Shown piece after piece: positions 899-26,638 of a stretch of 58,238 bases of DNA. Position numbers and translations under genes: made by a program. A model generated the notes under the pieces. The model saw nothing but the letters and a program-made list of their open reading frames with translations, did not search any database and was not told where the DNA came from. Source of the DNA: a virus (lineage: Duplodnaviria > Caudoviricetes); IMG/VR virus record IMGVR_UViG_3300050343_000240, positions 1 to 58,238 of that record. The stretch is one strand, 5' to 3'. Position 1 is the first letter of the stretch. Every line of letters begins with the position of its first letter.

Positions 899-3800
899 AT
901 GCCTGAGTTTAAATCAAAAAATAAATTTTACGATATTCCAGATCATCTTGTAGATGAATTTAAAATATCTCATCCTGATGCTGAAGAAATAATTTCTGAA
1001 GAGCCGGGAAAGATAAACCCTGCAAATCAAATAGGTGCGAAAAATGCAGGGCAAATAGAAGCACCCAATATGGATTTATTTTCGGAAACATCTTTTTCGG
1101 ATTCACAAGAAAAAGATACCGCTCTTGAAAGAACATTTGGTAAAAACTCTTTAACAGATTTTTTTGGTGATATATATAGATCAGCGCAAAAAGGTTTGCA
1201 ACAAGCAGAATTAGTAGACCCTAGCATAGATTTATTAAGATCAGAGGGAAATAACGATGAAATTATTTCAAAATATATAGCGGCTAATAAAGAATCATTA
1301 GAAAAAGCTGTGCAATCTGACGAAATGCGTAGCTTTAATAAAATATACGAAGAAGAAGGCGGTGGCTGGTGGGGTTTTATAAAAGGTGCAGCAAACAATC
1401 CTAGTGTATTAACTCAAGAATTAGTAAGTTCAATTGCAATGCAAATAGGAGCCCTTCAATCAGATGAGGTTGCTGGTGCTGCTACAACCGGTTTAGTTGC
1501 GGGTGCGGCTGCTGGAGCTCCTTTATTTGGAGTAGGTGCTGTTGCGGGAGGCGTTGCAGGAGCAATGTCCGGAGCAATGGTAGGTTTAGAAACAGGTTTA
1601 ACTTTTTCTGAATTATTAAATGAAGAAATAGGTGAAAATCTTACTGTTGAAAATGTTAAAGCAATATTGCAAAACGAAGAAAAGTTAAGTGAATTAAAAA
1701 ATAAAGCACTTGGCAGAGGATTAACTATTGGAGCTATTGAATTAGCAACTATGGGTCTTGCTAAAGGAGTAGGATCTACGGTAGCTAAAGCTGGTTTTAG
1801 AGGCGCGGTACCTGCTGGTTTAGCCGCTGGTGGAGCTATAGAAATAGCTGGTGGTGGTTTAGGTGAAGTTGCAGGTAGGTTTGTTGCAGGTCAAGAAATG
1901 GACGTTGCTGAAATTGGTTTTGAAGCATTTGCAGGGCTAGGCTCTGCACCTATTACTCTTGGAAAACAAATAACTAATACTGGTAAAAATATAGATAAAA
2001 TAAAAATAAATAAAATTTTAAAAGAAACTGAATATACTGATATTGTAGATTTATTTCTTAATGAAGAAAAAACATCCCAAAAGCAATTAGATATTTCTAA
2101 TTTTAAAAACTCTTTTGATATATTTAAAGAAAAATTAAATGAAAAAGTTAAATCTGGTAAAATAACAAAAGAAGAAGCGAATAAAGCAGGGGTTAATTTT
2201 ACGCAAACACAAGATGCCACTTCTACAGCTAATATAATGGAATTTGATGAGGCTAACAAGCTTTCTCTAATAGATTTACTGAAAGAAAGAGACAATTTAA
2301 GAAATTATATAAAAAAAGTAAACGATAAAGCTTTAACTGAAGCAGAACAAAATAAGGTTAAAGAACTTGAATCTGAAATAAAAAATTTAGCTTCTATTAG
2401 TGCTGGTAAAAAATTAAAACAATCTGTTTCTTTTGCTAAAAAAGCAGGAAAAGCTTTAGGTCTTAAAACTGAAATTTTAAATTCAGAACAAATTAAAGAA
2501 AAATATGGAAATGATCCTGAGTTTAAAGATCTAAAAATTGCCGATGGCTTTATTAGAAATGGATTAATTGTTATAAATACAGATGTAGCTAAAGAAAGAG
2601 GTGCTGTAACAGTTGGAAGTCATGAAATTCTTCATGGAATACTAAACACTGCGTTAAAAGGAAAAGATAGAGAAAAAATAGTAAATAGATTTAAAAAAAT
2701 AATAGGTAAGGAACAGTTAGCTGTAGTTGAAGGAAGATTAAAAGCTGTAGATCCTGACACAAAAAAAAGATTATATGAGGATAAGTACTTAGCTAAAGAA
2801 GGAATAGATGAATATTTTACAGCTTTTTCTGATGCAATAATCAAAAAAGAAATACAGTACAATGAAAATATATTTACCAAATTAGGCGATTTAATTCGCC
2901 CTATATTAAGAAAATATGGTTTTGCAAAAATTAAATTTGAGACCGGCAGAGATGTATATAATTTTTTAAAAGAGTACAATAAATCTGTAAAAGAAGGCCA
3001 GCTTAGCCAAGAAATTATTGATTTAGGAGCGGAAACTTCTCAGACTCAATTATCAGTATCTAAAAAAGCATCTGATAAAGTACAAGACATATACGAAAAA
3101 CAAGGAGCTGGAGGAGCTATAGACATAATTGATCAGTTTGAACCAATTGTAAATAAATTAGTAAATAAATATCGAAATGTACCAGGGTTTGAATATGAGC
3201 TTCTTAAAGACGAAATAGAGACTGGTAAGCGCGGTATTTTAGACATGATAATGGATTACACTCCTGAAAAAGCAAAAGGTGCTCCACTTGCAGGTTATAT
3301 AAATACATTTTTAAATCGTAGAGCTATTGAAGCGGCTAACCGTGTTCTTAAAACTGATTTTGAATTAGATGTTACAGAAGCCAAAGGAGTTACTGATACA
3401 GCAACAGCAGAAGAAATAATCGAAAGAGAAGAAGTTGATCCTGTAAATGAAATAAAAAGTTTACGTAAAGAAATTCAATTATCTGAAGAGCTTGTAACAA
3501 TAGTTAAAGATGCCATAATAAAAACTTTTGGAACTAAGCTACCAAATCCACAAGACCCTAAATTTAGATTAGAATTACAAAAAAGATTTAGAACAGAACT
3601 TAAAAAGCCTATGGCTAAGTTTGTAGGTAAACAAGCTGATTATGAATCTTTTTTACGTGATAACTTTAGGGCCATATATGATAAATTACCTCAGTCTTTA
3701 ATTAATAAAAGATTTAAAGAATTTGCAGAGCCTGTTTTAGATAAAAATGGTAAGCAATTACGTGAACGTACTGCTGAAGGTAACAAAATATTTACAAAAA

Positions 3801-6800
3801 AGAAAATAACACTAGCTGAGTTTATAAAATACTTTTTAGGTTCTGACGTTGGAAGATCTACACAAGGCACTAGAAAAACAGCAATAGTTGAAGCTGTAGC
3901 AGAAGAAATAGCATTTGATGCTACTATGGAAGTTTTGCAAAGTCCTGATGTAATAAATAAATATCAAGATATTGCAGGTATAACTGGCGAAGTATTACCA
4001 GAAAACTTTAAATCATTAATAGCTAAACAAGTTAATAGGGCAGAAGATTTTAAATTTTCTAAAAGCTTGGCTAATGTAGCTAAAGAAGAATATAATTTAG
4101 AATCTCAAGAATTAGCTAAAATACTTGATAAAACAAGTTTAGATAAATTAAGTAATAAATATCCATTAATATCCAATGCTATAATTTATGAAGCAGATCC
4201 TGCTGATATTAAATTTAGTCTTACGACTAAAGCTGATGGTAAATGGATACAAGAGCCATTAGGTCCACCTGCAGAAAGTTCAAAATTATACAAATTTAAA
4301 ATAGGAGAAATAGATTATGAAATAAAAACGTTTAAAGATCCTGATGCTTTTAATTATGATATATTTGAGCAAACAGAAAATATTGAAGATGGAGCTATTG
4401 ACAATGATCCAAAGTCCTGGGCTATGTCTTTTGCAGATGCGGATACAGGCTCTACAGATATAACAGGAGTCGCAGCAGAAGGGCTTACTAATCAATTTAA
4501 AGTATTTGGAACTGTAGCTAATGCAACTATAGATTTAATTAAAAAAGAAAAATTAAATTCTATAACATTTACTGCTAAAGAAGGTAGTAGAAAAAGATTA
4601 TATAACTCTTTAAATAAAAAGTTTGCAAATGAATTAAAGTGGGAAACATATGATTACCAAGCGGATTTAGCAGATGATTCAGAAACAATATTTATAGCTT
4701 ATGACCCCAAAGCTTTTCCAGCTGAAGAACAAATCACAACACCCACGTTAACTAAATTTTCAAAAGGAAAAAATAGTGAATATAATATTTCGGCTAAAGA
4801 ATTGTTATACGATAAAAAATCTTTTAATAAATTTAGAAAACTGTTTTTGATGCAGGGTTCAACTTTTCAAGATGAAGTTGGAGATTATAAAACTCGTTCA
4901 GGGTCTATGCCTCCCTCCCATGTACTTGATCCCACTCGATTTAAAGGCTACAAGTCTGAACTTAGCAATAAAGAAAGACAAGACTTTGATAAAAAAATTG
5001 ATAATTTAAGAATTGAACTTAAAAATATAGAAACAAAAAACAAAACAAGTGTTTTAAATAAAAATGAATCATATTTAGCTCCTGCAAAATTTATTGGTAA
5101 AACATTAAATCAAATTTTAAATAATTTAAAAACCGGAGAAATATTTAGAAGAACAAAAGCATATCAAAGAATTTATAAAACTATGTGGGAAAAGTATTAT
5201 AACATTCTTAATAAAAATCCAGAAATGTATGATTTTTTAGAAATGACTTTAGATACTTCTAATTCAAAATTAGACCATTGGCACAGATTAGGTGCTTTAT
5301 TTTTAGGGTTTGATCAAGGTGCTTTGCCAGTTCAAAGACTAGATAAAAAAGGAAACCCTATGTTTATAAGAAATCGAAACGGAGGGTTTATTTTAGATAG
5401 TAATGGAAATAAAATTCCAGAAATTCGCACATTTGAATATGAGCATGCTGTTCAAAATGATTTACAATGGAATAAATTATTAAAAGCAGCAGCTGAGTTT
5501 GCTAAAAAAAATGATAAAAAAGGATTTATTGATTTTGTTGAGAAATCAATGGAGGATTATGTTTTAGTTGGGTTATCATTTAATGATGCTAGAAAAGTTG
5601 ACAAAGCTGGATTTGCTCGTTTAATGCCAGAAGGATGGAAACGTTGGTGGGATAGATATTTCAATAATAAAGTAGCAAAAATAGACGGCGGAATAAATCC
5701 AAATAATATATCTTTTATAGAATATACTGATACTAAAGCTGGTGTTAAAGGTAATATTGGTCAACAATTTAATATTAATGATTCAGAAGGTAATACTCAA
5801 CTTTCTAGAACATTAAGCCGCCAATATAATGAAGATATACTGCAAGCTACGACAGGTGTAAAATGGTTTGAAAAGTTTTCTCCGGTTGAAGCTCGTATAA
5901 AAGGTAAAGGTAAAGGTAAAAAGTTTTTTATACCCTATTCAGCTGATGATTTTGTTGGTTTGCTATACACAACTTTAGGTAAAGGCGAAGTTGGTAATAA
6001 ACAAATGGAATGGTACCAAAATAATTTGCTTAGACCTTTTTCTCGTGGTATTCAACAATACGAAGCTGCTAAACAAAATGCTTTGCGTGAATGGCAAATA
6101 ATCAAAAAAGAAGCTAAAAAAGATGTTCCTGGAGGTTTAAATAAAAAGAATGCTACAGGCTTAACTAATCAAGATGCAGTACGTATATTTATATGGAACG
6201 AGCAGGGCATGGAAATACCCGGTGCAGGTAATAAGCTTATTAATGACAACTTAGAAGTTGTAAAAAATAATCCTAAGCTACAAGAGTTTGCAGAAAGATT
6301 AATGGCTTTAAATCCAGAAGGTTATCCTGAACCATCTAAAAACTGGGATTCAGGTGATATTACTACAGACATTGTATCATATATTAACGATGTTAAAAGG
6401 TCAGAGTTTTTAACTGAGTTTAAAGAAAATGCTGAAGAAATATTTTCTGATGAAAATAAACAAAAGCTTAGAGCTTTATACGGAGATAATTATATAGAAG
6501 CATTGGATGACATTCTTTTTAGAATGACTACTGGAACTAATAGAAGAAAAGGTGCAAGTAAAGTTGAACAGCAGTTTATGAATTGGACTAACAATTCTGT
6601 TGGTGCGATCATGTTCTTTAACGCTAGATCTGCTGTACTACAAACTTTGTCCGCAGTTAACTTTATAAACTTTAGTGATAATAATCCTATTAATGCTGCA
6701 ATTGCTTTTGCTAATTTTCCACAATATATAAAAGATTTTGTTGCATTATTTAATTCTGATTTTCTTAAACAAAGAAGAACAGGTCTACAAACAGATGTAA

Positions 6801-7834
6801 ATGCGGATGAAATTGCCAGAGCCGCTAAAGGTTCTAAAAATACTGCAAGAGCAATATTAAGCGCTTTACTTAAATTTGGTTTTACACCAACACAAATAGC
6901 AGATAGTTTTGCTATTGCTTCTGGTGGTGCAACTTTTTATCGTAATAGAATAAAGACATACTTAAAAGAAGGGTTAACTCAAAAAGAAGCCGAAGAAAAA
7001 GCATTTACAGACTTTCAAGAAATTGCAGAAGAAACACAGCAATCTGCAAGACCTGATAGAATATCATTGCAACAAGCGAGCTCATTAGGACGTATTGTAT
7101 TAGCTTTTGCCAACACCCCTATGCAATATGCCCGGTTAACTAAAAAAGCTACATTAGATTTAATTAATGGACGCGGAGATTGGAAGACAAATGTTAGTAA
7201 AATTGCTTATTATAGTGTAATACAGAATATTATATTCTCTGCGCTACAACAAGGTTTATTTGCTTTATTATTCGATGATGAAGATGATGATAAAGAAAAA
7301 TCAAGATTGTTTAGAATAGGTAATAGTAGTATTGATACTTTGCTTCGTGGTATAGGTGTTTATGGAGCAGCAGCAGCAACTGTTAAGAATATGATTTTAG
7401 AAATTATAGAACAGTCTGAAAAATCAAGACCTGATTATACTAAACTTGCAATTGAAGCTACATCAATTTCACCACCTATTAATTCTAAATTAAGAAAATT
7501 AGAATCTGCGGGTAAAACATTTACTTATAAGCAATCAAAAGAAAAAGTATTTACTGAAGGATTTAGTTTAGAAAATCCAGCATTTTTAGCTGGAGGTAAA
7601 GTATTATCCGCTGCAACAAACTTACCTGCTGATAGGGTTGTTCAAAAAGCAGATCATATTTATACAGCTATGCAACATGAAACGGAATTATGGCAAGCTA
7701 TAGCATTATCACTCGGCTGGTCTAAATGGGATTTAGGTATGATTAAAAATCAAACTAAAAAATCTAAAACACCATTAAGAAAAGGTAGAAAAAGCCTAAC
7801 AAGAAAAAGCCTAACAAGAAAAACAATTAAATAA
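899..7834 (+). CDS. Giant multidomain internal virion/ejection protein (Gly/Ala hydrophobic N-region, HExxH protease motif, sigma-r2-like domain, basic tail)
   Basis: 2311-aa ORF at the end of the structural arm; Gly/Ala-rich helices at aa ~190-350; HEILH at aa 575; sigma region-2-like aa 743-815. Confidence 0.75.
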   Translation: MPEFKSKNKFYDIPDHLVDEFKISHPDAEEIISEEPGKINPANQIGAKNAGQIEAPNMDLFSETSFSDSQEKDTALERTFGKNSLTDFFGDIYRSAQKGLQQAELVDPSIDLLRSEGNNDEIISKYIAANKESLEKAVQSDEMRSFNKIYEEEGGGWWGFIKGAANNPSVLTQELVSSIAMQIGALQSDEVAGAATTGLVAGAAAGAPLFGVGAVAGGVAGAMSGAMVGLETGLTFSELLNEEIGENLTVENVKAILQNEEKLSELKNKALGRGLTIGAIELATMGLAKGVGSTVAKAGFRGAVPAGLAAGGAIEIAGGGLGEVAGRFVAGQEMDVAEIGFEAFAGLGSAPITLGKQITNTGKNIDKIKINKILKETEYTDIVDLFLNEEKTSQKQLDISNFKNSFDIFKEKLNEKVKSGKITKEEANKAGVNFTQTQDATSTANIMEFDEANKLSLIDLLKERDNLRNYIKKVNDKALTEAEQNKVKELESEIKNLASISAGKKLKQSVSFAKKAGKALGLKTEILNSEQIKEKYGNDPEFKDLKIADGFIRNGLIVINTDVAKERGAVTVGSHEILHGILNTALKGKDREKIVNRFKKIIGKEQLAVVEGRLKAVDPDTKKRLYEDKYLAKEGIDEYFTAFSDAIIKKEIQYNENIFTKLGDLIRPILRKYGFAKIKFETGRDVYNFLKEYNKSVKEGQLSQEIIDLGAETSQTQLSVSKKASDKVQDIYEKQGAGGAIDIIDQFEPIVNKLVNKYRNVPGFEYELLKDEIETGKRGILDMIMDYTPEKAKGAPLAGYINTFLNRRAIEAANRVLKTDFELDVTEAKGVTDTATAEEIIEREEVDPVNEIKSLRKEIQLSEELVTIVKDAIIKTFGTKLPNPQDPKFRLELQKRFRTELKKPMAKFVGKQADYESFLRDNFRAIYDKLPQSLINKRFKEFAEPVLDKNGKQLRERTAEGNKIFTKKKITLAEFIKYFLGSDVGRSTQGTRKTAIVEAVAEEIAFDATMEVLQSPDVINKYQDIAGITGEVLPENFKSLIAKQVNRAEDFKFSKSLANVAKEEYNLESQELAKILDKTSLDKLSNKYPLISNAIIYEADPADIKFSLTTKADGKWIQEPLGPPAESSKLYKFKIGEIDYEIKTFKDPDAFNYDIFEQTENIEDGAIDNDPKSWAMSFADADTGSTDITGVAAEGLTNQFKVFGTVANATIDLIKKEKLNSITFTAKEGSRKRLYNSLNKKFANELKWETYDYQADLADDSETIFIAYDPKAFPAEEQITTPTLTKFSKGKNSEYNISAKELLYDKKSFNKFRKLFLMQGSTFQDEVGDYKTRSGSMPPSHVLDPTRFKGYKSELSNKERQDFDKKIDNLRIELKNIETKNKTSVLNKNESYLAPAKFIGKTLNQILNNLKTGEIFRRTKAYQRIYKTMWEKYYNILNKNPEMYDFLEMTLDTSNSKLDHWHRLGALFLGFDQGALPVQRLDKKGNPMFIRNRNGGFILDSNGNKIPEIRTFEYEHAVQNDLQWNKLLKAAAEFAKKNDKKGFIDFVEKSMEDYVLVGLSFNDARKVDKAGFARLMPEGWKRWWDRYFNNKVAKIDGGINPNNISFIEYTDTKAGVKGNIGQQFNINDSEGNTQLSRTLSRQYNEDILQATTGVKWFEKFSPVEARIKGKGKGKKFFIPYSADDFVGLLYTTLGKGEVGNKQMEWYQNNLLRPFSRGIQQYEAAKQNALREWQIIKKEAKKDVPGGLNKKNATGLTNQDAVRIFIWNEQGMEIPGAGNKLINDNLEVVKNNPKLQEFAERLMALNPEGYPEPSKNWDSGDITTDIVSYINDVKRSEFLTEFKENAEEIFSDENKQKLRALYGDNYIEALDDILFRMTTGTNRRKGASKVEQQFMNWTNNSVGAIMFFNARSAVLQTLSAVNFINFSDNNPINAAIAFANFPQYIKDFVALFNSDFLKQRRTGLQTDVNADEIARAAKGSKNTARAILSALLKFGFTPTQIADSFAIASGGATFYRNRIKTYLKEGLTQKEAEEKAFTDFQEIAEETQQSARPDRISLQQASSLGRIVLAFANTPMQYARLTKKATLDLINGRGDWKTNVSKIAYYSVIQNIIFSALQQGLFALLFDDEDDDKEKSRLFRIGNSSIDTLLRGIGVYGAAAATVKNMILEIIEQSEKSRPDYTKLAIEATSISPPINSKLRKLESAGKTFTYKQSKEKVFTEGFSLENPAFLAGGKVLSAATNLPADRVVQKADHIYTAMQHETELWQAIALSLGWSKWDLGMIKNQTKKSKTPLRKGRKSLTRKSLTRKTIK
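7787..7823 (+). repeat. 15-bp tandem repeat AGAAAAAGCCTAACA x2.5 encoding RKSLT
   Basis: Read directly from the sequence. Confidence 0.9.
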
Positions 7835-18727: not shown

Positions 18728-19471
18728 CTACAGAAAATCAACTACTTGCGAAGGATCTGTAGTCTCAATTAATTTATTAATTGCATCGCGTTTTATTTGA
18801 GAAATTCTAACAAAAGCCGCTGTGCCTTTAATATTTAATTTTTCTGCTATTTGATTAGCTGACATTTTATCACAGTCTAATCCATAGCTCATTCTAAGTA
18901 CATCATATTCTTTTATACTTAGGTTCGCTTCCATTATACTTAAAAGATATTTATTTAAAATATCAATATTGTATTCTTTGGTTTTATCTGGTATTTCATA
19001 TACCATATTGTTTTCAGGTGATTCATTATCTATACTAGCGAAGATACTATTGAAAAACATTTGAACCATTTTTTCTTCTTGACCTGAATTTTTTCTTATT
19101 TCATTTAATTTATGTTCTGGTATTCTTATATTACCTCTATTAATATCTATAGCTCTTCGTATTGCGCCTTTAATACGTTTAGATATAAATGACTTTAAAG
19201 TACGTTCGGGATCAACAGAATCGGTTATCTTATCCCATTCAATGTTATCTACTGCATGTATCAATCCTATTGACCCTTCCTGTATAAAATCATTTATACT
19301 AAGCACACCTGAAGCTTGCTGTGTTGTTGAAAACTTCCGTGCTATAGTTTCTACTAAAGACATGTGCTTAATAATTAAGTCTTGTCTTTTATCACCTGTA
19401 TCTGGCTCTTCTCCATATGAATCTATGTCGTGTCTATACCTAACATAATTCTGTATATTATACTTCTTCAT
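18728..19471 (-). CDS. Phage sigma-70-family RNA polymerase sigma factor
   Basis: Region 2 LVETIARKF...DFIQEGSIGLIHAV...RIKGAIRRAI; region 4 LRMSYGL...IAEKL...RISQIKRDAINKL. Confidence 0.9.
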   Translation of the reverse strand: MKKYNIQNYVRYRHDIDSYGEEPDTGDKRQDLIIKHMSLVETIARKFSTTQQASGVLSINDFIQEGSIGLIHAVDNIEWDKITDSVDPERTLKSFISKRIKGAIRRAIDINRGNIRIPEHKLNEIRKNSGQEEKMVQMFFNSIFASIDNESPENNMVYEIPDKTKEYNIDILNKYLLSIMEANLSIKEYDVLRMSYGLDCDKMSANQIAEKLNIKGTAAFVRISQIKRDAINKLIETTDPSQVVDFL

Positions 19472-20075
19472 TTAATAATATTTTTTCCCTCTTAATCTCA
19501 GTCGTTATATTTCTATACACTGTTCTAGTAGAAACTTTCAGTGCTTTAGCTATAGTAGCGATAGTTATTTTACGGTTTGTATCGTGAATATACAACATTG
19601 TTTCATAAATATCGTTAGGCTCAGCCATTTTTTTGCGACCTATAAGTTTACCTACTATGCTAAGCTTCTCTGAAGTGCTTAACCCTGAGTGGTCTTTAAA
19701 TATTATTTTTCTTACTTTATTTTTAGGTGGTTCTTCTAAATCCATTTCAAATACTTCATCAACAGTATTTTTAATTGATGCATCTGTCAATGCTACTGTA
19801 ATGAACCCATTATCTTTATCCCCTATGAATTGTGCTAACTCTAATATATCATCATAAGTTAGTTGAGGATTTAAATACCATAACACAAGCAGATGCCATT
19901 TAAATGATCTGTAAGACGTTATCTTAGCCTTACTTCTGAATAGCTCATAACATTCACGAGTTCCATTCTCATAAAAATTACCCCAACTAAAAATTTCAGA
20001 AGGGGTATCAGTGATAGGATTGCGTCTGTATATGATGCGTCTTCGATTTAAATAATCAAGTTTTCTATGCGACAT
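19458..20075 (-). CDS. DNA-binding protein with C-terminal HTH (possible origin-binding protein or regulator)
   Basis: C-terminal ITIATIAKALKVSTRTVYRN helix-turn-helix. Confidence 0.7.
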   Translation of the reverse strand: MSHRKLDYLNRRRIIYRRNPITDTPSEIFSWGNFYENGTRECYELFRSKAKITSYRSFKWHLLVLWYLNPQLTYDDILELAQFIGDKDNGFITVALTDASIKNTVDEVFEMDLEEPPKNKVRKIIFKDHSGLSTSEKLSIVGKLIGRKKMAEPNDIYETMLYIHDTNRKITIATIAKALKVSTRTVYRNITTEIKREKILLNEEV

Positions 20076-20116
20076 TAGCCTGCTACTATAGTTATTTTAT
20101 TAGCTATCGTCACACT
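20068..20116 (-). promoter_or_regulatory. 49-bp palindromic element, copy 1 (overlaps the start codon of the HTH gene)
   Basis: Reverse complement AGTGTGACGATAG-N17-GTAGCAGGCTAATGTCGCA matches 26330-26378. Confidence 0.75.
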
Positions 20117-20200
20117 CTGGTCCGATAACCTCGTAAAGGATTTCTAAATCCTCTAATTCTTGTTTTGTAATATGATCTAACAGATCTTTTGTTTTACCCA

Positions 20201-20410
20201 TTATAATAAAACTAATTTTAAATATTTTTGATATTCTTTCATTCTACTACTTATTTCTTGTAGTTCCTTAACCTTTTTATTTAATTCTTTACCTTTTAGT
20301 TCATCAATATTTTTAGCCTTTTGGCTAAGTTTCATGTGTAATGAAAATATATGATACCTAACTGAGGTTACATGTTTCTTTTTTCTTGATACTAATCTGT
20401 CTAAAATCAT
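20201..20410 (-). CDS. Hypothetical basic coiled-coil protein
   Basis: 69-aa ORF on the arm's coding strand. Confidence 0.6.
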   Translation of the reverse strand: MILDRLVSRKKKHVTSVRYHIFSLHMKLSQKAKNIDELKGKELNKKVKELQEISSRMKEYQKYLKLVLL

Positions 20411-20639
20411 ATGTTTTTTCTTTTAATTTTATATAATCAGGTTTTTTTAAGTACTTGTATAATTTGTAACTCATTTTAATATAATTCAATAAATTCTATA
20501 TCTACTTCTGGTGGATAGTATCTTAATATACCTTCTACCGTTTCATCTTGTGCTTTTTGAGACATCTCTAAATTAATAAGATAATCAAGTTTTTTACCTT
20601 TATACTTAACAATTAGTCGTCCCATACGTAAATTTTGCA

Positions 20640-20915
20640 TCATAGCTTTTGTATTTTAGTTCTGATCATTCTGATCTTATTCTTAATCATATTTGCTTTC
20701 TCATACTCTTCTTCTTTTACATAAGTATCTAAGAGTTCTTCTAGCTTCATTAATTCAATATGCAAATACTCAAGCTCGTCTACATGTTTAGAATTACCGA
20801 ATTCATCACTAATTATATAAGTGTTGTTTTCTTTTTCATAACTTTCTTGTTGCTTCATTAATTTTTCAAATAAAGCTTCAGCAATTTTATTTATATCGTC
20901 TTCGGTTAAACTCAT
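20640..20915 (-). CDS. Hypothetical protein with C-terminal UVR-like coiled-coil motif
   Basis: YVKEEEYEKANMIKNKI. Confidence 0.6.
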   Translation of the reverse strand: MSLTEDDINKIAEALFEKLMKQQESYEKENNTYIISDEFGNSKHVDELEYLHIELMKLEELLDTYVKEEEYEKANMIKNKIRMIRTKIQKL

Positions 20916-20942
20916 GCGGTTCTTATTATATTACTATTTATT

Positions 20943-21125
20943 TTATTTATTTAATAATTCGTAAAGTTCAGATTTCATTTTAATAATAGCTTCGGAAGCT
21001 TGAATGATTTCGTGTATAGCATTCGCTTCGTCATCCGTTATAACACGATTTCTAAAGTTAATAGTCTGTAAACCATGCACAAAATTCCATATTGTAGCTG
21101 CTGTTTCGGAGATGTTATTTAACAT
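20943..21125 (-). CDS. Hypothetical protein
   Basis: 60-aa ORF overlapping its upstream neighbour. Confidence 0.6.
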   Translation of the reverse strand: MLNNISETAATIWNFVHGLQTINFRNRVITDDEANAIHEIIQASEAIIKMKSELYELLNK

Positions 21126-21737: not shown

Positions 21738-21762
21738 ATTTATTATCTGTTTTTATTCGTGT

Positions 21763-21966
21763 TTATCTTGTAAATTTATATATTGAATTGTGAGTGAATT
21801 TTGTTTTATGTAATTTTTTACCTGTGAATATTAAATCACGATTTTTACTATAATCACTATCTGTAAATGGCTTACAATGGCCATGCACATCAGTTTCAGC
21901 TTTCCATTTAGCTGCGTTAGCTTTCTTTTTATCTTCCATGTATTGTTTTAATTCTTGTATTGTCAT
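21763..21966 (-). CDS. Hypothetical early protein
   Basis: 67-aa ORF. Confidence 0.6.
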   Translation of the reverse strand: MTIQELKQYMEDKKKANAAKWKAETDVHGHCKPFTDSDYSKNRDLIFTGKKLHKTKFTHNSIYKFTR

Positions 21967-22227
21967 TAGTATAAAGGTTTAGTGTATTGCTCGTCAGTTT
22001 TCCAGTGGTTCATAATATGTTCACCAGTTGAATTATCTATATAATACGTGAAAGTACCTATAGTTATATATACTGATTTTTCGGATCGTACGTCTATAAT
22101 CATGATATTTCTTTTATATAATTTAATGCCGCTTTTTCTGTATTAAAATCTTTATAGCCAGCATATATTTCATTCTTTTTCCAAAGAACTCTGTATTGAT
22201 CGTTAATAGTTAATTTAATTTTTGTTT

Positions 22228-22470
22228 TCATGCTGTTAATTCTTTTGCCATATATGTTGTATATGGTGTTTTTGTTTTCATTGGTTCAACTAGTTCGGCT
22301 ATGCGTAGCCATACCTTTAGGTTGCTAATGTCACCCATAACTAGTTTATAAGATAGTTCAGGCCAAGCAACTTGGTGTCTGTTTTTAAATTGAGTACGTA
22401 TACTTAATCTGTAGTGTGCTATTTTAGATATTAGCTTTGCCTCAATTCGATCGTCGATTGGATTTGTCAT
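22228..22470 (-). CDS. Hypothetical early protein (likely start MTNPIDD)
   Basis: In-frame ATG at 22470; the upstream ATG lies inside a structured element. Confidence 0.55.
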   Translation of the reverse strand: MTNPIDDRIEAKLISKIAHYRLSIRTQFKNRHQVAWPELSYKLVMGDISNLKVWLRIAELVEPMKTKTPYTTYMAKELTA

Positions 22471-22502
22471 ATTGTTTATTTTAAAGTTATTATTTAATAT
22501 TG

Positions 22503-22735
22503 TACAGGAGAGAAGGAACATTACCCTTGCTTCATCTCGAGATTCTATTTACCCGTCGGCAATCTCCTGTAGATTGTTAGTTAAGCCAAACCGCCCCAGA
22601 GAATGTCTGGTATTTTTTCAAGGCGGCTAGCTCAACATGAAACACACAACTAAGTGCTTTTGATGGTGTCCATTTGAGGTTCTTCAGGTAGCTAATCCCT
22701 ATCCTCGACGAAGCCAACGTGGTAGAGGACCATCA
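22503..22735 (-). ncRNA. Cluster of three stem-closed structured RNA-like elements, family unknown
   Basis: GC-richer non-coding island with closing stems at 22503-22571, 22580-22636 and 22661-22735; G-U pairs favour the minus strand. Confidence 0.55.
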
Positions 22736-22887
22736 TAAATGTTATAACTGTTGGTTCAGTATGTAGTTAATAACTTGACTAGGTGTACCAGTCATTGTAC
22801 GTTCTTCATTGTATAGATCTTTGAACGTTAAGCTATAGAACTTTGGTTTGTGTATAGCAAACTTTGTGTTGTGTTTGTTGCCTGCCA

Positions 22888-23118
22888 TTACTTTGTATTT
22901 GTAGTTTCAATTTGTTTTTCGTTTTCAAGCTTTGTTATTACGTCATGAAGCTTAACTGTTATATAGTCAATTATATCTTCTACGTCAAAGCCATCGGCCC
23001 ATACTACAGGTACAAACTTTTCGAGCATGTATCTTGTATCCCAGTCGGCATTAGTTAGTTTTTCAATGCGACTGATTTTGTTTTGTAAGTCTAAGTAATT
23101 TTTTAATTGTGTGTTCAT
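22888..23118 (-). CDS. Hypothetical early protein
   Basis: 76-aa ORF starting 27 bp from a motif copy. Confidence 0.7.
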   Translation of the reverse strand: MNTQLKNYLDLQNKISRIEKLTNADWDTRYMLEKFVPVVWADGFDVEDIIDYITVKLHDVITKLENEKQIETTNTK

Positions 23119-23144
23119 AATATTTAATTGTTTGTTTGTTCGTT

Positions 23145-23179
23145 AATAATATCCGTTATGCTTCGTGTTTACTTTGTAA
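23145..23179 (-). promoter_or_regulatory. Early promoter-like motif copy
   Basis: + strand AATAATATCC-GTTATGCT-TCGTGTTTACTTTGTAA. Confidence 0.75.
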
Positions 23180-23485
23180 TTCTTCATCATTGCATTCAAT
23201 AAAGTTTTCAACTTCATACTCAGGGAAGAACTCATCTACGTCTGAGCAATATACATTTGCATCTTCATCTAATTCTGATATAGTTTCTATTAAAGTATCA
23301 AAATCTGGTTTGTAATAGAATACATCATTCTCCCAATCTATGTTAGATACGTCGTGTGATACTACATAGATTTCATAACCATCTGCAGTTGTTTGCGTGT
23401 AGATATGTAGATCGCAGTATTTTCCGTAGTCTTCTGTAATTTTATCTATGTTTAATATTTTTGTTAGTTGTTCAATGTGTGTCAT
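23156..23485 (-). CDS. Acidic hypothetical early protein
   Basis: 109-aa D/E-rich ORF. Confidence 0.7.
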   Translation of the reverse strand: MTHIEQLTKILNIDKITEDYGKYCDLHIYTQTTADGYEIYVVSHDVSNIDWENDVFYYKPDFDTLIETISELDEDANVYCSDVDEFFPEYEVENFIECNDEELQSKHEA

Positions 23486-23657
23486 TTTGTAATTCTTTTA
23501 ATTAATGTAAATAATATTTGTTGTTTTACTTTTAGTTCTAATTCGTTGAAGTCATCACCATCAAAGTTTTTATTTGTAACCTGCCAGTGTATTGTATTAT
23601 CAATGTGCTCATCAATTTCTTCAACACATTGTTCTGCTAATAATCTAATAATTTTGT

Positions 23658-23858
23658 TCATGCTATTTCAAGATTAAGTTGTTGTGCTACGTAGTTGATA
23701 TGCCTCGACGTCGTTGGACTATGCGATCCGACGCCGGGGACATACCAGTTCACCAAATGAAGCTTGTTATTTTTTACTGTTGCAACGCATGTATCATAAG
23801 AATAAATATCATTGCCAACTTGTTTTAGATTTTGTTTGTATCTGTCAAATGTTTTCAT
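23658..23858 (-). CDS. Hypothetical early protein
   Basis: 66-aa ORF downstream of a motif copy; IYSYDT...SPTTSRHINY. Confidence 0.7.
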   Translation of the reverse strand: MKTFDRYKQNLKQVGNDIYSYDTCVATVKNNKLHLVNWYVPGVGSHSPTTSRHINYVAQQLNLEIA

Positions 23859-23883
23859 GTGTGTGTTTGTTTGTTGTTTCGTT

Positions 23884-23925
23884 AATAATATCCGTTTGTC
23901 ACCACTCGTGTTAAGTCTGTTGTAA
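23884..23925 (-). promoter_or_regulatory. Early promoter-like motif copy (longer-spacer variant)
   Basis: + strand AATAATATCC-N12-TCGTGTTAAGTCTGTTGTAA. Confidence 0.6.
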
Positions 23926-23926
23926 T

Positions 23927-24142
23927 TTATCCGATATAATCTAATAGTTTTTTTATCTTCTTTAGATTCTTGTGTGCACTTTGGGCACTCATAAATTGTG
24001 CGTAGTCTGGTCCAACTGCGACTAATTCATTCACTGTTTTTTTAACCATATATAATTTTTCTTTAGTTGTAAATGGTTCATTCAGTATTCCCATTGGGTC
24101 GTTGTTCAATATTTCTTTTAGTATTTCGTCTTTAGTCTTCAT
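23927..24142 (-). CDS. Hypothetical early protein
   Basis: 71-aa ORF. Confidence 0.65.
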   Translation of the reverse strand: MKTKDEILKEILNNDPMGILNEPFTTKEKLYMVKKTVNELVAVGPDYAQFMSAQSAHKNLKKIKKLLDYIG

Positions 24143-24276
24143 ATAATTTTATATTGTCATCAGGGTGATATTGAAATTTATCTTTTGGTGCTCGAGGTGT
24201 TAATGTGGGTCGCTCCCATTTGTATCCTAGTATTGGGTTAATTCCATAATTCCAGAAGTCCCAAGGCATTTCGTTT

Positions 24277-24474
24277 TTAGTATCCGTATCTTGCATAATG
24301 TTTGATTGTATTTATACTTGCTTTATTAAATTGTTTAACTCGTTTTCTGTAGTTCGCATCAAGGCAATACTTCTTCATTGCATTCACAGAAGCGATTCCG
24401 TGATCTGTACCGTGTTCTTTTTCGAACTCTTGTATTTGTATTAGCTTAGCGTCTATTTGTTCTTGTGTGATCAT
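24277..24474 (-). CDS. Hypothetical early protein
   Basis: 65-aa ORF. Confidence 0.65.
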   Translation of the reverse strand: MITQEQIDAKLIQIQEFEKEHGTDHGIASVNAMKKYCLDANYRKRVKQFNKASINTIKHYARYGY

Positions 24475-24750
24475 TTTAATGTCATTGTTATTAATTCAAA
24501 TTCTTCGTTTGTGATGATGCCTTCCATCAGTGCACCAAATTCTTTTGAGACGTCACGTCCTGTGTATTTGTTTACTATTGTCATATTATATATTGTTTTT
24601 TAATTTCTTTTATTAATTCAACTCGTCTGTCTATTAGCTGTTGGTGTATATTAAGTAGCTTTTCTTGTTGGTCTAGTGATAACTTTAAGTCGTGTAACTT
24701 TAGATCTTGTATCATATCTAGTTTGCCATTTATTTCGTGTAGTTTTGGTA

Positions 24751-24909
24751 TCATAGCTTACTAAATTTTTTGATTAAGCTTAATTCTGTTTCAAATATCC
24801 ATTGTTGTGATATGTTTAGTTGTCCTAAGCGATCTACATCAGCTTTTGTTTTTACATAGTCAACTAAGCTGAAGTAAAGTTTGTCTATTTCTTGTTGTGT
24901 TAATTTCAT
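24751..24909 (-). CDS. Small early protein (52 aa, MKLTQQEIDKLYF...)
   Basis: Translated by hand; directly downstream of the motif at 24933. Confidence 0.6.
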   Translation of the reverse strand: MKLTQQEIDKLYFSLVDYVKTKADVDRLGQLNISQQWIFETELSLIKKFSKL

Positions 24910-24932
24910 TTGTGTTTGTTTTTATATTCATT

Positions 24933-24967
24933 TATATTATCCAATTTACATCGTATTAAGCTTGTAG
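24933..24967 (-). promoter_or_regulatory. Early promoter-like motif copy
   Basis: + strand TATATTATCC-AATTTACA-TCGTATTAAGCTTGTAG. Confidence 0.75.
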
Positions 24968-25144
24968 TTTAGTATAAGAGTAATATACTTTTGTTGTGTC
25001 TATATTATCCCATAATGCTTTCCTTGCAAATGTTACTCTAGTTGTACTCTTTACAGGTCTAATGTAATTTGCCATAAGTGATTGAGTACGTTGGTTTTGT
25101 CTTGCTATTTTCTTCTTGATCTTGTTGTATGCTTCAGTAGTCAT
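24956..25144 (-). CDS. Hypothetical early protein
   Basis: 62-aa ORF ending inside the motif. Confidence 0.6.
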   Translation of the reverse strand: MTTEAYNKIKKKIARQNQRTQSLMANYIRPVKSTTRVTFARKALWDNIDTTKVYYSYTKLQA

Positions 25145-25509
25145 AGTGTGTATGTTTTATTTGTTAATATTTTTAGTTGATAGGTATAATACCTTGTTTG
25201 TGTGTACGTTAAAAGTTATTTTAGCTAATATTTTTAAGTAGTTTATCAATTTTAGTTACAATTTCAAATGCTTTGTGTTGACTTGATTCAGTATGTTGAT
25301 CGTTGTTTGCAAAGTCTTCCATTGCATATCTGATGAGGTGTAACTCTAGTGGTTTGAAATTAGTTTCCATGTTGTTTGTTTTATTTGTTATGATAATATA
25401 CTTAGTAGTTCTAGTTTTCTATTTTGAGATTCAGGTGTTGGGTTGAAGTTTGATTCAAATTCTTCAATTAGTTGTAGTTCTTTATATATTTCTTTTAAGT
25501 TTATATTGA

Positions 25510-25641
25510 TCATAATTCTTCTTTTACTATTTCTATTTGTTCTTTAACTTGTTTTATTCTTTCAATATCTTTTGCATCTTTTACTTGTTCAAGTATTGTT
25601 TCGAGTGCAAGTACTATTAACCATTTATTTAATTTATCCAT
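25510..25641 (-). CDS. Small early protein (43 aa, MDKLNKWLIVLALE...)
   Basis: Translated by hand; downstream of the motif at 25665. Confidence 0.55.
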   Translation of the reverse strand: MDKLNKWLIVLALETILEQVKDAKDIERIKQVKEQIEIVKEEL

Positions 25642-25664
25642 GTGTGTGTGTTTTAATGTTCTTA

Positions 25665-25699
25665 TATATTATCCAGTTGAGGTCGTGTTAGTCTTGTAA
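25665..25699 (-). promoter_or_regulatory. Early promoter-like motif copy
   Basis: + strand TATATTATCC-AGTTGAGG-TCGTGTTAGTCTTGTAA. Confidence 0.78.
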
Positions 25700-25831
25700 T
25701 TCTTCAAGTTCTTTATAAACCATTTCCATGATCACTTCTTGTAGTTCGTCATCAGTATATTCATATTGTAGTTCTGAATGTTCTTGTATTAGTTGGTTAT
25801 ATAATTCTTCTATTCGATCTTCTCTATCCAT
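25688..25831 (-). CDS. Small acidic early protein (47 aa, MDREDRIEELYNQL...ELQD)
   Basis: Translated by hand; lies between two motif copies. Confidence 0.6.
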   Translation of the reverse strand: MDREDRIEELYNQLIQEHSELQYEYTDDELQEVIMEMVYKELEELQD

Positions 25832-25853
25832 GTTGTTAGTTTTTATATTCATT

Positions 25854-25888
25854 TATATTATCCAGTTGAGGTCGTATTTACTTTGTAA
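25854..25888 (-). promoter_or_regulatory. Early promoter-like motif copy
   Basis: + strand TATATTATCC-AGTTGAGG-TCGTATTTACTTTGTAA. Confidence 0.78.
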
Positions 25889-25891
25889 AAA

Positions 25892-26041
25892 TTATTTGTT
25901 TAATTGTTTTTGTACTTCAAGTTCTTTTAAGTATATTTGGTTTAATTTAACTATAACATGTTCAATTGCATATTGATAATTTAAATATTTTTTATTAGAA
26001 ACTTTTATTATTAATTTTTCAAGTTGTTTAGTTGTAGACAT
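25892..26041 (-). CDS. Small early protein (49 aa, MSTTKQLEKLIIKV...)
   Basis: Translated by hand; lies between two motif copies. Confidence 0.55.
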   Translation of the reverse strand: MSTTKQLEKLIIKVSNKKYLNYQYAIEHVIVKLNQIYLKELEVQKQLNK

Positions 26042-26066
26042 TGTGTTATTATTTTTTTGTTACATA

Positions 26067-26101
26067 TATATTATCCAAATTGGTTCGTGTTTAGTTTGTA
26101 A
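26067..26101 (-). promoter_or_regulatory. Early promoter-like motif copy
   Basis: + strand TATATTATCC-AAATTGGT-TCGTGTTTAGTTTGTAA. Confidence 0.78.
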
Positions 26102-26145
26102 AATGCTATACACGAAAACGTGTATCGCTAAGATCGAAGCCTAAC

Positions 26146-26180
26146 TATATTATCCAATTAGTTTCGTACTAAGTTTGTAA
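26146..26180 (-). promoter_or_regulatory. Early promoter-like motif copy (most upstream)
   Basis: + strand TATATTATCC-AATTAGTT-TCGTACTAAGTTTGTAA. Confidence 0.75.
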
Positions 26181-26255
26181 AAAGTAAAAACCTAAAAAGT
26201 TTTACAAAAACAGCCCAAATGGGACCCCCGTGGGGTAAAATAAAAGTGTTTTGTA

Positions 26256-26280
26256 TAAAGCGTTGATTGTCAATATGTTA
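26256..26280. promoter_or_regulatory. Palindromic TAA-N5-TGA-N3-TCA-N5-TTA site (IHF-consensus-like)
   Basis: TAAAGCGTTGATTGTCAATATGTTA; the minus strand contains AATCAACGCTTTA, matching WATCAANNNNTTR. Confidence 0.5.
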
Positions 26281-26621: not shown

Positions 26622-26638
26622 GTGATTAATATATAGAC

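Follow-up and report, generated by a model that had tools for sequence, protein, structure and literature searches.

The late sigma factor gp55 of phage T4 consists only of a domain resembling sigma region 2. It is a small free protein that is made during infection, binds host core RNA polymerase (RNAP), reads an AT-rich −10-type element and requires gp33 and the sliding clamp. Sigma region 4 is a helix-turn-helix that binds the −35 element and the beta flap. The virion RNAPs of N4-like and crAss-like phages are giant proteins that are encoded near structural genes, are ejected with the DNA and initiate the transcription of early genes at promoters that are conserved and specific to the phage. 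T4 Alt is an injected enzyme that modifies RNAP. Promoters and the primary sigma factor of Bacteroidota hosts are atypical and, to our knowledge, selective early transcription by RNAP-less phages of Bacteroidota is largely unexplained. The main text of Iyer et al. 2017 (PMC5512222) presents as a theme of polyvalent proteins that injected proteins are processed by zincin-like peptidases and jump-start transcription; the word sigma does not occur in that main text.

Here we analysed a stretch of 58,238 nucleotides (the window) from an uncultured marine phage assigned to Flavobacteriia as hosts. An earlier note on this DNA had proposed that a giant protein, here called P0002, is ejected from the virion and carries a sigma-like module that redirects host core RNAP to the early promoters. 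The features are collected in Table 1.

The locus resembles T4 gp55 in that a sigma-2 fold lacking region 4 occurs in a phage, and the gp45-dependent activation complex of T4 (7d7d) was matched; the 33-nt early motif ends in GGATAATA, and the gp55 element is AT-rich and of the −10 type. Unlike gp55, with which it was compared by fold, the domain lies inside a 2311-residue protein of the late operon, is followed by a novel 200-residue domain and would need to act at time zero. With the N4 and crAss virion RNAPs, P0002 shares its size and its position near structural genes; a neighbouring gene of this phage carries the C-terminal domain of the crAss muzzle protein. In contrast to these enzymes, it has no detected polymerase motif or domain and would give specificity to the host enzyme, not supply an enzyme. 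The best structural matches were group 3/4 sigma factors (SigB, sigma-28, AlgU/ECF, SigK and SigI; Z 7.2–8.0, 79–93 residues, rmsd 2.8–3.6 Å), and the DxIxxGxxGL-type pattern of their region 2.2 is retained; the module differs from them in having no detected sigma region 4, in not being a free protein and in falling below the Pfam thresholds. Like the polyvalent proteins of the main text of PMC5512222, P0002 is giant, contains swappable cassettes and a conserved HExxH region that might serve in self-processing, lies among virion genes and has LPD38 and LPD39 as ESM Atlas leads; unlike them, it contains no significant Pfam LPD family. Homologues of P0002 combine many unrelated domains in variable architectures, the mark of the polyvalent class.

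Table 1. Features of the window, with positions counted from its first nucleotide
Feature	Residues of P0002	Position	Strand	Remarks
Giant ORF P0002, 2311 aa		899..7834	+	multi-domain, polyvalent-type; last large gene of structural operon
PHROG 32588 region, N-terminal	69-479	1103..2335	+	phrog_32588, E 1.8e-54
HExxH...E (zincin-like) region	440-719	2216..3055	+	conserved; TQLS end at 3044-3055
Sigma-2-like domain	721-821 (module residues 2-102)	3059..3361	+	profile, fold and co-fold evidence; contains 3125-3343
Acidic linker, predicted disordered	822-850 (module residues 103-131)	3362..3448	+	pLDDT <50
200-aa helical domain with beta-hairpin	851-1054	3449..4060	+	FKFS end at 4049-4060
Variable cassette region	1055-1636	4061..5806	+	[KQ][FL]S motifs at aa 1105, 1286 and 1634
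C-terminal domain, 675 aa, no assigned function		5807..7831	+	conserved; single hydrophobic helix at ~aa 2107
Conventional sigma-70-family gene, 247 aa		18728..19471	-	regions 2 and 4; phrog_351, E 3.8e-19
33-nt motif TTACAA-N7-ACGA-N9-GATAWTA, seven copies		21741..26180	-	upstream of small early ORFs
33-nt motif, individual copies		21741-21773, 23147-23179, 24935-24967, 25667-25699	-	
33-nt motif, individual copies		25856-25888, 26069-26101, 26148-26180	-	

A domain homologous to sigma region 2 within a giant protein

The 73 residues in which the sigma pattern had been noticed (aa 743–815 of P0002) are the exact translation of positions 3125–3343 of the plus strand. A profile built from 28 diverse homologues was searched against 177,635 PDB sequences and yielded 13 matches, the first ten of which were sigma factors aligned on region 2. 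The sigma matches comprised SigE-N, RpoS, FliA and RpoD, with individual E-values of only 0.03–0.26. Using hhalign, we then compared the family profile with an alignment of E. coli RpoD, RpoS, RpoH, FliA and RpoE together with the phage's own sigma family. This gave a probability of 76.6% (E 2.1e-5) over 67 columns spanning regions 2.1–2.3, with module residues 15–86 placed on RpoD residues ~366–435. The downstream 200-aa domain, which served as a negative control, gave a probability of 0.09% against the same alignment. In the ESM Atlas, eight of the 30 nearest clusters were Sigma70_r2 (score 0.94), which we take as a lead only.

The Pfam model Sigma70_r2 (PF04542) did not match the module or the 73-residue segment at E ≤ 10, the whole of P0002 at E ≤ 1 or any of 16 homologues at E ≤ 0.001, and a six-frame Pfam search of the genome placed it in the separate sigma gene only and not in the module. 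A single-sequence PDB search with the module (phmmer) gave no match, and a narrow profile of ten sequences missed the sigma factors, which were found only by the diverse profile. Taken one at a time, the sequence-level E-values for the likeness to sigma are marginal. Hundreds of giant proteins that are shuffled elsewhere retain the domain at 45–83% identity.

An AF2 model of the module had a mean pLDDT of 81, with blocks of 80–88 in the sigma-2-like domain. It was compared with 48,161 PDB representatives without a prefilter. Ranks 1–25 were all sigma-factor or sigma-complex entries (Z 8.0–5.7), the identity of the chains in the complexes being taken from the entry titles. They aligned over 75–95 residues, corresponding to model residues ~2–102, with an rmsd of 2.8–4.0 Å in 24 of the 25 cases; rank 2 had an rmsd of 12.3 Å. 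The T4 gp55 complex 7d7d was among the matches (Z 7.1, 90 residues), and 3ugo, in which sigma-2 is bound to −10 single-stranded DNA, stood at rank 40. Sequence identity to sigma factors in the structural alignments was 3–19%. According to the search tool, Z-values of 6–8 are common for helical models, and the argument from the fold therefore rests on the purity of the match list and not on the Z-values. Foldseek with the whole two-domain module returned SigA at a weak E-value of 0.25, probably because the orientation of the domains in the model is arbitrary.

The PDB profile search, the hhalign comparison and the fold search all bear out the reading of the segment as a homologue of sigma region 2. 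We conclude that residues ~721–821 of P0002 are a true homologue of domain 2 of the sigma-70 family (regions 1.2/2.1–2.4).

Conserved residues and predicted docking on beta-prime

The most conserved positions of the family, each conserved in at least 90% of the sequences, are E53, G57, Y68 and Y81 (module numbering). In the hhalign alignment they map to the equivalents of regions 2.2 and 2.3. We take the region 2.2 helix of sigma-70 to be core-binding, and residues F419, Y425, Y430, W433 and W434 to be those of −10 element recognition and melting. In the alignment, which is approximate here, Y68 corresponds to F419 and Y81 to Y430, whereas A76, T84 and F85 differ from their counterparts Y425, W433 and W434.

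To model a contact with RNAP, module residues 1–102 were co-folded with residues 220–350 of beta-prime from F. johnsoniae, a stand-in for the host protein. The ipSAE was 0.79 (0.77, 0.80 and 0.79 in the individual runs), and the best of three controls reached 0.01. In the calibration, the mark was reached by 58 of 80 solved pairs and by 2 of 110 mismatched pairs. The contacts agreed by at least 88% between runs, and the pLDDT of the partner was at least 88. The interface consisted of residues 49, 52–53, 56–58 and 62–63, which are the equivalents of region 2.2. Co-folding with the beta-prime clamp had been proposed as a check in the earlier note, and by this model the sigma-2-like domain would bind beta-prime through its region 2.2 equivalent. 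The co-fold score may reflect sigma/beta-prime complexes remembered by the predictor, as many of these have been solved.

Borders of the module and a partner domain with a novel predicted fold

The module had been described as a unit of ~335 residues running from a TQLS linker to an FKFS end. This holds across the family: the conserved block starts after [KQ][FLM]S and ends with F[KQR]FS, delimiting a discrete conserved unit of that size. A conserved LDVTEAKGVTDT stretch starts just upstream of the acidic linker. The 200-aa domain beyond the linker was modelled with a pLDDT of 93.3 and a pTM of 0.86. Foldseek against the PDB gave a best E-value of 0.36, with no sigma factor among the matches listed. 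The best match in the fold search was a designed repeat (Z 5.8), no sigma factor occurred in the best 50 rows, and winged-helix and other DNA-binding entries were scattered at Z ~4, which is the level of noise. The BFVD returned only a homologous protein of an uncultured virus. The domain is thus a confidently predicted fold without a known relative among the searches made.

Neither hhalign nor Foldseek nor the fold search found sigma region 3 or 4 in the module. Of the two sigma regions with which the earlier note proposed to compare aa 720–1054, region 2 was recovered by profile and by fold, though missed by Pfam, whereas region 4 was not (0.09% by hhalign, no sigma entries). It is possible that the 200-aa domain holds a divergent equivalent of region 4 despite its absence from the match lists. 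Among 251 homologues, 176 contained both domains of the module, 48 the sigma-2-like domain alone and 27 the 200-aa domain alone; 43 of the 48 continued for more than 250 residues downstream. If active as a sigma factor, the module would, by analogy, be a sigma-2-only factor like T4 gp55 and not one with regions 2 and 4.

Layout and genomic context of the giant gene

With an E-value limit of 1e-3, 716 of 7105 candidates proved homologous to the region of P0002 that includes the sigma-like module. P0002 is built from conserved blocks (aa 440–1060 and 1640–2290) and variable ones (aa 1–400 and 1080–1620). The tripeptide pattern [KQ][FL]S occurs 11 times, compared with 2.5 expected, and is found at the borders of the module. 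Near the N terminus there are Gly/Ala-rich hydrophobic stretches (~aa 197–227, with hydrophobic windows at aa 197 and 209). The HExxH motif reads HEILH (aa 575–579; positions 2621–2635 of the window). In 17 sequences its His, Glu and His and one downstream Glu were each conserved to at least 90%. A PDB profile search over the motif gave the IrrE metalloprotease as its sole match, at a weak E-value of 0.56, and no Pfam peptidase domain was found in the whole protein at E ≤ 1. We regard the HExxH region as a candidate peptidase on the grounds of its sequence pattern.

A Zeta_toxin/AAA_33 P-loop kinase cassette was present in 4 of 16 homologues, and aa 1170–1266 of P0002 weakly matched DUF6934/phrog_16075. 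The C-terminal domain had many invariant columns among the 17 sequences. A PDB profile search with it gave no sequence match, DUF885 appeared below threshold only (7 of 17 sequences, Pfam), and the nearest named clusters in the ESM Atlas were LPD39 and LPD38, again a lead only. Neither P0002 nor its module had a tblastn match in 50,697 phage records.

In this phage, as in five contiguous relatives, the structural operon contains no further large ORF after the giant gene; in the relatives, a gene for a muzzle-like protein is followed by the giant gene, small ORFs and a ribonucleotide reductase gene (RNR). Giant genes at the equivalent position in Elemovirus (3694 aa) and in the Callevirus phi38:1 (1691 aa) are annotated as encoding structural proteins. 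Searched with the module profile, MW202828, Elemovirus NC_055853 and phi38:1 NC_021796 gave no match. P0002 showed no similarity to phi38:1 gp101 in BLASTP, and sequence shared between P0002 and the "structural" giants of cultured relatives was not detectable. From the position of the gene and from the equivalently placed giants, we infer that P0002 is packaged into the virion and ejected, as the earlier note had supposed. The sigma-like domain in P0002 suggests, without proving it, that a factor for starting transcription enters the cell with the phage. In the literature searched, with subscription journals outside the coverage, nothing relevant was found on virion-delivered or injected sigma factors, or on the virion proteomics of Elemovirus.

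RNA polymerase signatures and the separate sigma gene

The proposal of a delivered sigma factor included the remark that the DNA has no catalytic RNAP motif of the DxDGD type. No D.DGD or D[FY]D.D was found in the six frames of the window; the sole DxDxD of P0002 is the acidic run DDEDDD at aa 2127. Likewise, no RNAP domain of the beta-prime type was present in the window or in five relatives that are ~100% complete: PF00623 was found 0 times, and the positive control was detected in 14 of 14 genomes. A hidden polymerase in the phage was considered and rejected at the sequence level, there being no catalytic motif or domain and no PDB sequence match for the C-terminal part of P0002.

The separate sigma gene had also been recognized correctly, as judged by PHROG and Pfam matches. 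With the protein alone, Pfam gave 22.5 bits for region 2 and 19.5 bits for region 4, both just below the cut-off; with its neighbours, the score was 26.5 bits and above the cut-off. At least 8000 relatives of this gene were found. The module and the phage's own sigma factor are not close paralogues, and a recent origin of the one by copying of the other was therefore discarded.

The early motif

A repeated motif unlike host promoters had been reported ahead of the early genes. We found seven copies of it and none of the reversed pattern, which served as the control. The cluster is confined to the early region, where the ORFs are on the minus strand, with no copy ahead of the late genes. A simple Bacteroidetes-type promoter pattern was found 8 times against 6.4 expected and is thus not enriched; this pattern did not occur ahead of the leftward early genes.

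The 33-nt motif is present in 7 of 10 relatives bearing the module, with 4–8 copies each, and one doubtful single match was seen in addition. It was absent from all three cultured relatives without the module. Two module-bearing genomes, G004 (99% complete) and G007 (89% complete), lack it at ≤ 1 mismatch, and the co-occurrence of module and motif, the one link between them, is confounded by the shared ancestry of the phages. In five of five complete relatives, the motif cluster and the conventional sigma gene share a strand, with the sigma gene on the downstream side. Phage early promoters used by the host enzyme are sometimes long and highly conserved, and the host sigma-A holoenzyme could read the 33-nt motif.

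Marine metatranscriptome contigs (four runs of one study) covered scattered parts of positions 20000–27400, without starts or ends; they are informative neither on transcription nor on strand.

A possible mode of action and its alternatives

We tentatively favour a model in which the packaged giant delivers a sigma-2-like module that directs host RNAP to the early motif, while giving it somewhat less than an even chance of being right as a whole. P0002 would be made late, packaged and delivered together with the DNA. It would probably be cleaved at the [KQ][FL]S borders, with the HExxH domain of P0002 itself as a possible protease, and such proteolytic release would free the ~335-aa module with its sigma-2-like domain, acidic linker and novel 200-aa domain. 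Via the region 2.2 equivalent, the module would then dock on the clamp helices that beta-prime contributes to the host core RNAP. Acting as a minimal initiation factor without region 4, similar to T4 gp55, it would recognize the promoters and bring the host enzyme to the 33-nt early motif. The genes driven by the motif would be expressed first, and the conventional 247-aa sigma factor would serve the later classes. A phage with no RNAP of its own, as this one appears to be from its sequence, requires host RNAP to be active on the phage DNA from the start.

If true, immediate-early transcription would have a third route, beside the virion RNAPs of N4 and crAss-like phages and T4 Alt-type enzymes. 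Injection of a specificity factor would represent a new principle of takeover. It would account for an early motif that is long, invariant and different from host promoters, and would make sigma-like domains part of what delivered polyvalent proteins can carry. Many of the relatives come from marine samples, and the mechanism would then be shared by an abundant group of marine viruses. A first case of a sigma factor delivered by virions, found in abundant marine flavobacterial phages and with the 200-aa domain in place of region 4, is a doubtful proposition at present.

The best-surviving alternative, in our judgement unlikely, is that the domain binds RNAP without being specific for promoters. 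It could compete as a decoy with sigma-A of the host and so turn off host transcription, or be a tether that holds RNAP at the entering DNA or channel and, for example, helps to pull the genome in; the 33-nt motif would then be read by the host holoenzyme or by the 247-aa phage sigma. Such a role agrees with a co-fold interface confined to the region 2.2 equivalents, with T and F in place of the aromatic pair W433/W434, and with the failure to find a DNA-binding domain like region 4. The occurrence of the domain without its 200-aa partner in 48 of 251 homologues also fits a self-sufficient RNAP-binding cassette. However, Y68 and Y81, which align with F419 and Y430 of the −10 pocket, are conserved to at least 90%, a phage without RNAP requires active host RNAP from the outset, and a strongly conserved motif unlike host promoters calls for a dedicated reader.

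It is improbable that the sigma-2 descendant, after exaptation, is only a helical scaffold within a protein of the virion or of ejection and has no contact with RNAP. Conservation is not evenly spread but clusters at the equivalents of regions 2.2 and 2.3, the co-fold with beta-prime beats all three controls, and an identity of 45–83% is retained across hundreds of shuffled giants. A scaffold would agree with the failure of the Pfam model to match the domain and with its low identity to sigma factors (3–19%), and P0002 does resemble a structural or ejection protein in its Gly/Ala hydrophobic stretches and late-operon position.

P0002 might also stay unpackaged and its module act late in the producing cell, for instance after cleavage of the precursor and in the manner of T4 gp55, whose sigma-2-only fold was also picked up by the structural search (7d7d, Z 7.1). 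The location of the gene within the late operon suits this idea, which we hold to be quite improbable: the 33-nt motif occurs in the early region and not before late genes, a conventional sigma gene is already present for the later classes, and hydrophobic segments with swappable effector-like cassettes fit delivered polyvalent proteins better.

Delivery of a sigma-2-like module stays our preferred reading, and a mere chance likeness of an ordinary helical bundle to sigma region 2, for which one could cite the individual E-values (0.03–0.26), the whole-module Foldseek result (0.25) and Z-values under 8 that can reflect common helical arrangements, is very improbable given that four independent kinds of search converge on one family in one register, that the first 25 rows from 48,161 chains are all sigma, and that the neighbouring-domain control reached 0.09%.

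A probable sigma region 2 homologue within a giant phage protein

The segment that the earlier note had read as sigma-70 region 2 translates to exactly the 73 residues it quoted, aa 743–815 of a giant 2311-residue protein. It lies in a module (aa 720–1054) of three parts: a sigma-2-like domain (aa 721–821), an acidic disordered linker and a 200-aa helical domain with a beta-hairpin (aa 851–1054). Single-sequence searches (Pfam, and phmmer against the PDB) gave no match for segment or module, and a six-frame PF04542 scan of the window found only the separate sigma gene, not the module segment. Among large proteins, 716 matches to the module family were obtained at E ≤ 1e-3; an exhaustive search yielded 465 representatives, 113 of these at E ≤ 1e-30. 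Using an alignment of 28 sequences with relatives from IMG/VR (A2; identity down to 25%), we obtained 13 profile matches among PDB sequences. The first 10 were all sigma factors (SigE N-domain, RpoS of several species, FliA and RpoD), matched on region 2 in one common register, with individual E-values of only 0.03–0.26.

To compare alignments directly, A2 was matched by hhalign to a sigma-factor alignment (A3: Escherichia coli RpoD, RpoS, RpoH, FliA and RpoE plus the phage's own sigma family). The probability was 76.6% (E 2.1e-5, 67 columns) and placed module residues 15–86 on RpoD regions 2.1–2.3 (module residue 1 is aa 720); the 200-aa domain, used as a negative control against the same sigma alignment, scored 0.09%. 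As a lead only, Sigma70_r2 was present in 8 of the 30 nearest ESM Atlas clusters.

An AlphaFold2 model of the module built on A2 (mean pLDDT 81) has a helical domain at residues 1–100, a disordered stretch at 103–131 and then the second domain. We aligned this model, without a prefilter, to 48,161 PDB representatives (VIA). Ranks 1–25 were sigma-factor entries without exception, and the first unrelated entry was rank 26. They included SigB, ShbA, sigma-28, AlgU, pro-SigK, SigI6, a T4 gp55 complex, SigE-N, RpoS, sigma-32, sigma-70 and SigR, chain identity in complexes being read from entry titles. All aligned over model residues ~2–102 (75–95 residues; rmsd 2.8–4.0 Å in 24 of 25, 12.3 Å at rank 2) with Z of 8.0–5.7, a size unremarkable by itself for helical models, so that what counts is how uniformly sigma entries fill these ranks. 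Foldseek with the two-domain model was weak (SigA, E 0.25). The proposed region-2 pattern thus holds up: the domain falls below Pfam's own threshold and is very probably a divergent yet genuine sigma-2 homologue.

Predicted binding to RNA polymerase

We co-folded module residues 1–102, with alignment, and beta-prime of Flavobacterium johnsoniae, a stand-in for the host. Residues 220–350 were used, which, going by E. coli numbering, should cover the clamp helices. The ipSAE was 0.79 (runs 0.77, 0.80 and 0.79) versus 0.01 for the best of three controls, above a mark reached by 58 of 80 solved and 2 of 110 mismatched pairs, although such a pass may reflect likeness to the many solved sigma/beta-prime complexes. 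Contacts agreed by at least 88% between runs, and partner pLDDT was at least 88. The interface (residues 18–22, 44–49, 52–53, 56–58, 62–63, 66 and 96–97) coincides with region 2.2 in the hhalign alignment; of the domain's four most conserved positions, it takes in E53 and G57. The model supports, rather than demonstrates, binding of the domain to beta-prime. Conserved tyrosines align with sigma-70 F419 and Y430, residues with a role at the –10 element, and would fit retained recognition of a –10-type element. Equivalents of W433/W434 are not kept.

The 200-aa domain

Folded alone, the 200-aa domain reached pLDDT 93.3 and pTM 0.86. Foldseek found no credible relative in the PDB (best E 0.36), the best VIA match was a designed repeat (Z 5.8) with no sigma entry among the best 50 rows, its profile gave nothing of note among PDB sequences, and the sole BFVD match was a homologous uncultured-virus protein. 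Foldseek, VIA and the PDB profile search thus picked up no counterpart of region 3 or 4, although absence from such lists does not prove that one is lacking. By single-sequence phmmer, 176 of 251 stored homologues have both domains, 48 only the sigma-2-like and 27 only the 200-aa domain; more than 250 aa follow downstream in 43 of those 48. The two domains are separable in evolution.

Architecture and possible delivery of the giant protein

Across homologues, aa 440–1060 and 1640–2290 are conserved and aa 1–400 and 1080–1620 variable. Directly upstream of the module lie an HExxH motif and a downstream Glu, each at least 90% conserved in 17 sequences; the only match of a profile of this region was the IrrE metalloprotease (E 0.56). 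The protein contains 11 copies of the tripeptide [KQ][FL]S versus 2.5 expected (fourfold), including copies at block borders. TQLS and FKFS, noted earlier as start and end of the module, are indeed both borders of a conserved block; IKFS, TKFS and a TQLS before the C-terminal block follow. In homologues, the border ahead of the sigma-2-like domain is often (K/Q)(F/L/M)S(K), and extra cassettes in longer homologues are again KFS-flanked, as read by eye from the consensus. These borders are candidate sites of proteolytic processing. A Zeta_toxin/AAA_33-type P-loop kinase cassette is present in 4 of 16 long homologues. Most long homologues (alignment of P0081–P0249) also carry a consensus stretch, FDFDDTLA..., that by eye looks like a HAD phosphatase. 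Conservation is also strong over the C-terminal 675 aa, for which LPD38/LPD39 are a weak lead from ESM Atlas.

The giant's architecture matches that of the polyvalent proteins described by Iyer et al. (2017; PMC5512222). Proteins of this kind have many domains, are injected, are probably cut by zincin-like metallopeptidases and, among other roles, jump-start transcription. Sigma is not mentioned in the main text of that paper.

Among the large ORFs of the + strand structural operon, the giant gene comes last. Five relatives whose 10-kb flanks are contiguous share one order: a muzzle-like gene, more structural genes, the giant, small ORFs and, on the opposite strand, ribonucleotide reductase. 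Elemovirus gp18 (3694 aa) and phi38:1 gp101 (1691 aa), both annotated as structural proteins, occupy the same position, as does a 3859-aa gene in a freshwater relative. These three have no detectable sequence in common with the 2311-aa protein, lack the module and are positional analogues only. Support for the giant being a virion or ejected protein is thus only indirect.

Early transcription

In line with the earlier note, no polymerase signature was found in the window: D.DGD and D[FY]D.D are absent from all six frames, and the giant's only DxDxD sits in an acidic run. A beta-prime catalytic domain was found neither in the window nor in five ~100% complete relatives (search control positive in 14 of 14 genomes), and functions are assigned to all large ORFs other than the giant.

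The repeated, non-host-like early motif was also recovered (Table), with an ATG 4–28 nt 3' of five strict copies. Seven of ten module-bearing relatives (G001–G003, G005, G006, G008, G009), with module identities of only 49–83%, have 4–8 clustered, same-strand copies. One more has a single doubtful match; two, one 99% and the other 89% complete, have none, nor do three cultured relatives that lack the module. The reversed pattern was absent from all 14 records. A simple Bacteroidetes-type promoter pattern, with the consensus of the literature, was not enriched in the window and preceded no early gene (a weak negative). The motif looks like a family-specific early promoter.

The separate gene noted earlier is a conventional sigma gene, the only one of its kind in the window. 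In five of five complete relatives and here it is found further downstream, on the strand of the motif cluster, and is therefore unlikely to read the motif first. Since no phage polymerase signature was found either, the early promoters would be read by host holoenzyme or else by something that enters together with the DNA.

Between the two outermost motif copies, a perfect hairpin (ATACACG-TTTT-CGTGTAT) is followed by a T-run; the first motif promoter may yield only a ~45-nt hairpin RNA or be attenuated. A 270-nt non-coding region separates the leftward early genes from rightward genes and contains a GC-rich island (CAGCCCAAATGGGACCCCCGTGGGG), unusual at 32% genome GC. This region may mark a genome end, an origin or a packaging signal.

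A tentative mechanism and its rivals

We tentatively favor a reading in which the giant protein would be delivered with the genome and its module would dock on host core RNA polymerase and there work, much as T4 gp55 does, as an initiation factor that lacks region 4. The module would direct the polymerase to the 33-nt motif, and the early unit so driven would reach the conventional sigma gene, whose product would run the later program. That the domain binds polymerase merely to compete with sigma-A, or to tether the enzyme where the DNA enters, seems to us unlikely. An exapted scaffold is less plausible still, and a domain that acts late, without packaging, is improbable. Chance resemblance to sigma-2 is very unlikely.

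Sigma factors, sigma-2-only phage factors, polyvalent injected proteins and virion polymerases are already known. In the literature covered, which takes in a minority of subscription journals, no putatively delivered giant was found to contain a sigma-2 domain. If delivery and promoter redirection are confirmed, this would count as a new strategy of early transcription in an abundant marine phage group.

Genome, relatives and likely host

Coordinates of features in the window
Feature	Position (nt)	Strand	Remarks
Giant gene	899–7834	+	2311 aa
Region-2-like segment	3125–3343	+	aa 743–815
Border TQLS, ahead of module	3044–3055		aa 716–719
Border FKFS, module end	4049–4060		aa 1051–1054
Border IKFS	~4211–4219		aa 1105–1107
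Border TKFS	~4754–4762		aa 1286–1288
Border TQLS, before C-terminal block	~5798–5806		aa 1634–1636
Conventional sigma gene	18728–19471	-	247 aa
33-nt motif, TTACAA-N7-ACGA-N9-GATAWTA	21741–26180	-	7 copies; early region of small - strand ORFs
Hairpin	~26101–26147	-	
Non-coding divergent region	26200–26470		
GroEL-type chaperonin	27365–28924	+	Phage-encoded
Structural protein	49008–52157	+	1049 aa; Crassvirus muzzle-protein C-terminal domain, PF25729, E 2.3e-11
ORF within structural operon	53381–54538	+	PHROG: 2OG-Fe(II) oxygenase, aa 3–188; ferrochelatase-like family, aa 250–375
ORFs interrupted by record ends	3–872 and 57266–58237		Function not assigned

The IMG/VR virus record (58,238 bp; completeness estimate 91%) is a tailed-phage genome and encodes TerL, portal, structural proteins, a tail fiber and a protein with a crAss muzzle C-terminal domain, and also GroEL, ribonucleotide reductase and a primase-helicase. 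TerL is 62% identical to that of an uncultured freshwater podovirus, 45% to those of Flavobacterium Elemovirus phages and 36–39% to those of Cellulophaga phages including phi38:1. Given the likeness to Flavobacterium and Cellulophaga phages, the host is most likely a member of the Flavobacteriia. The muzzle domain occurs in a phage otherwise nearest to Elemovirus and Callevirus podophages, and GroEL and GroES are annotated in cultured relatives too. Gene order across the record-end junction is kept in relatives, which argues that the record is a permuted, nearly complete genome from which a small piece is missing.
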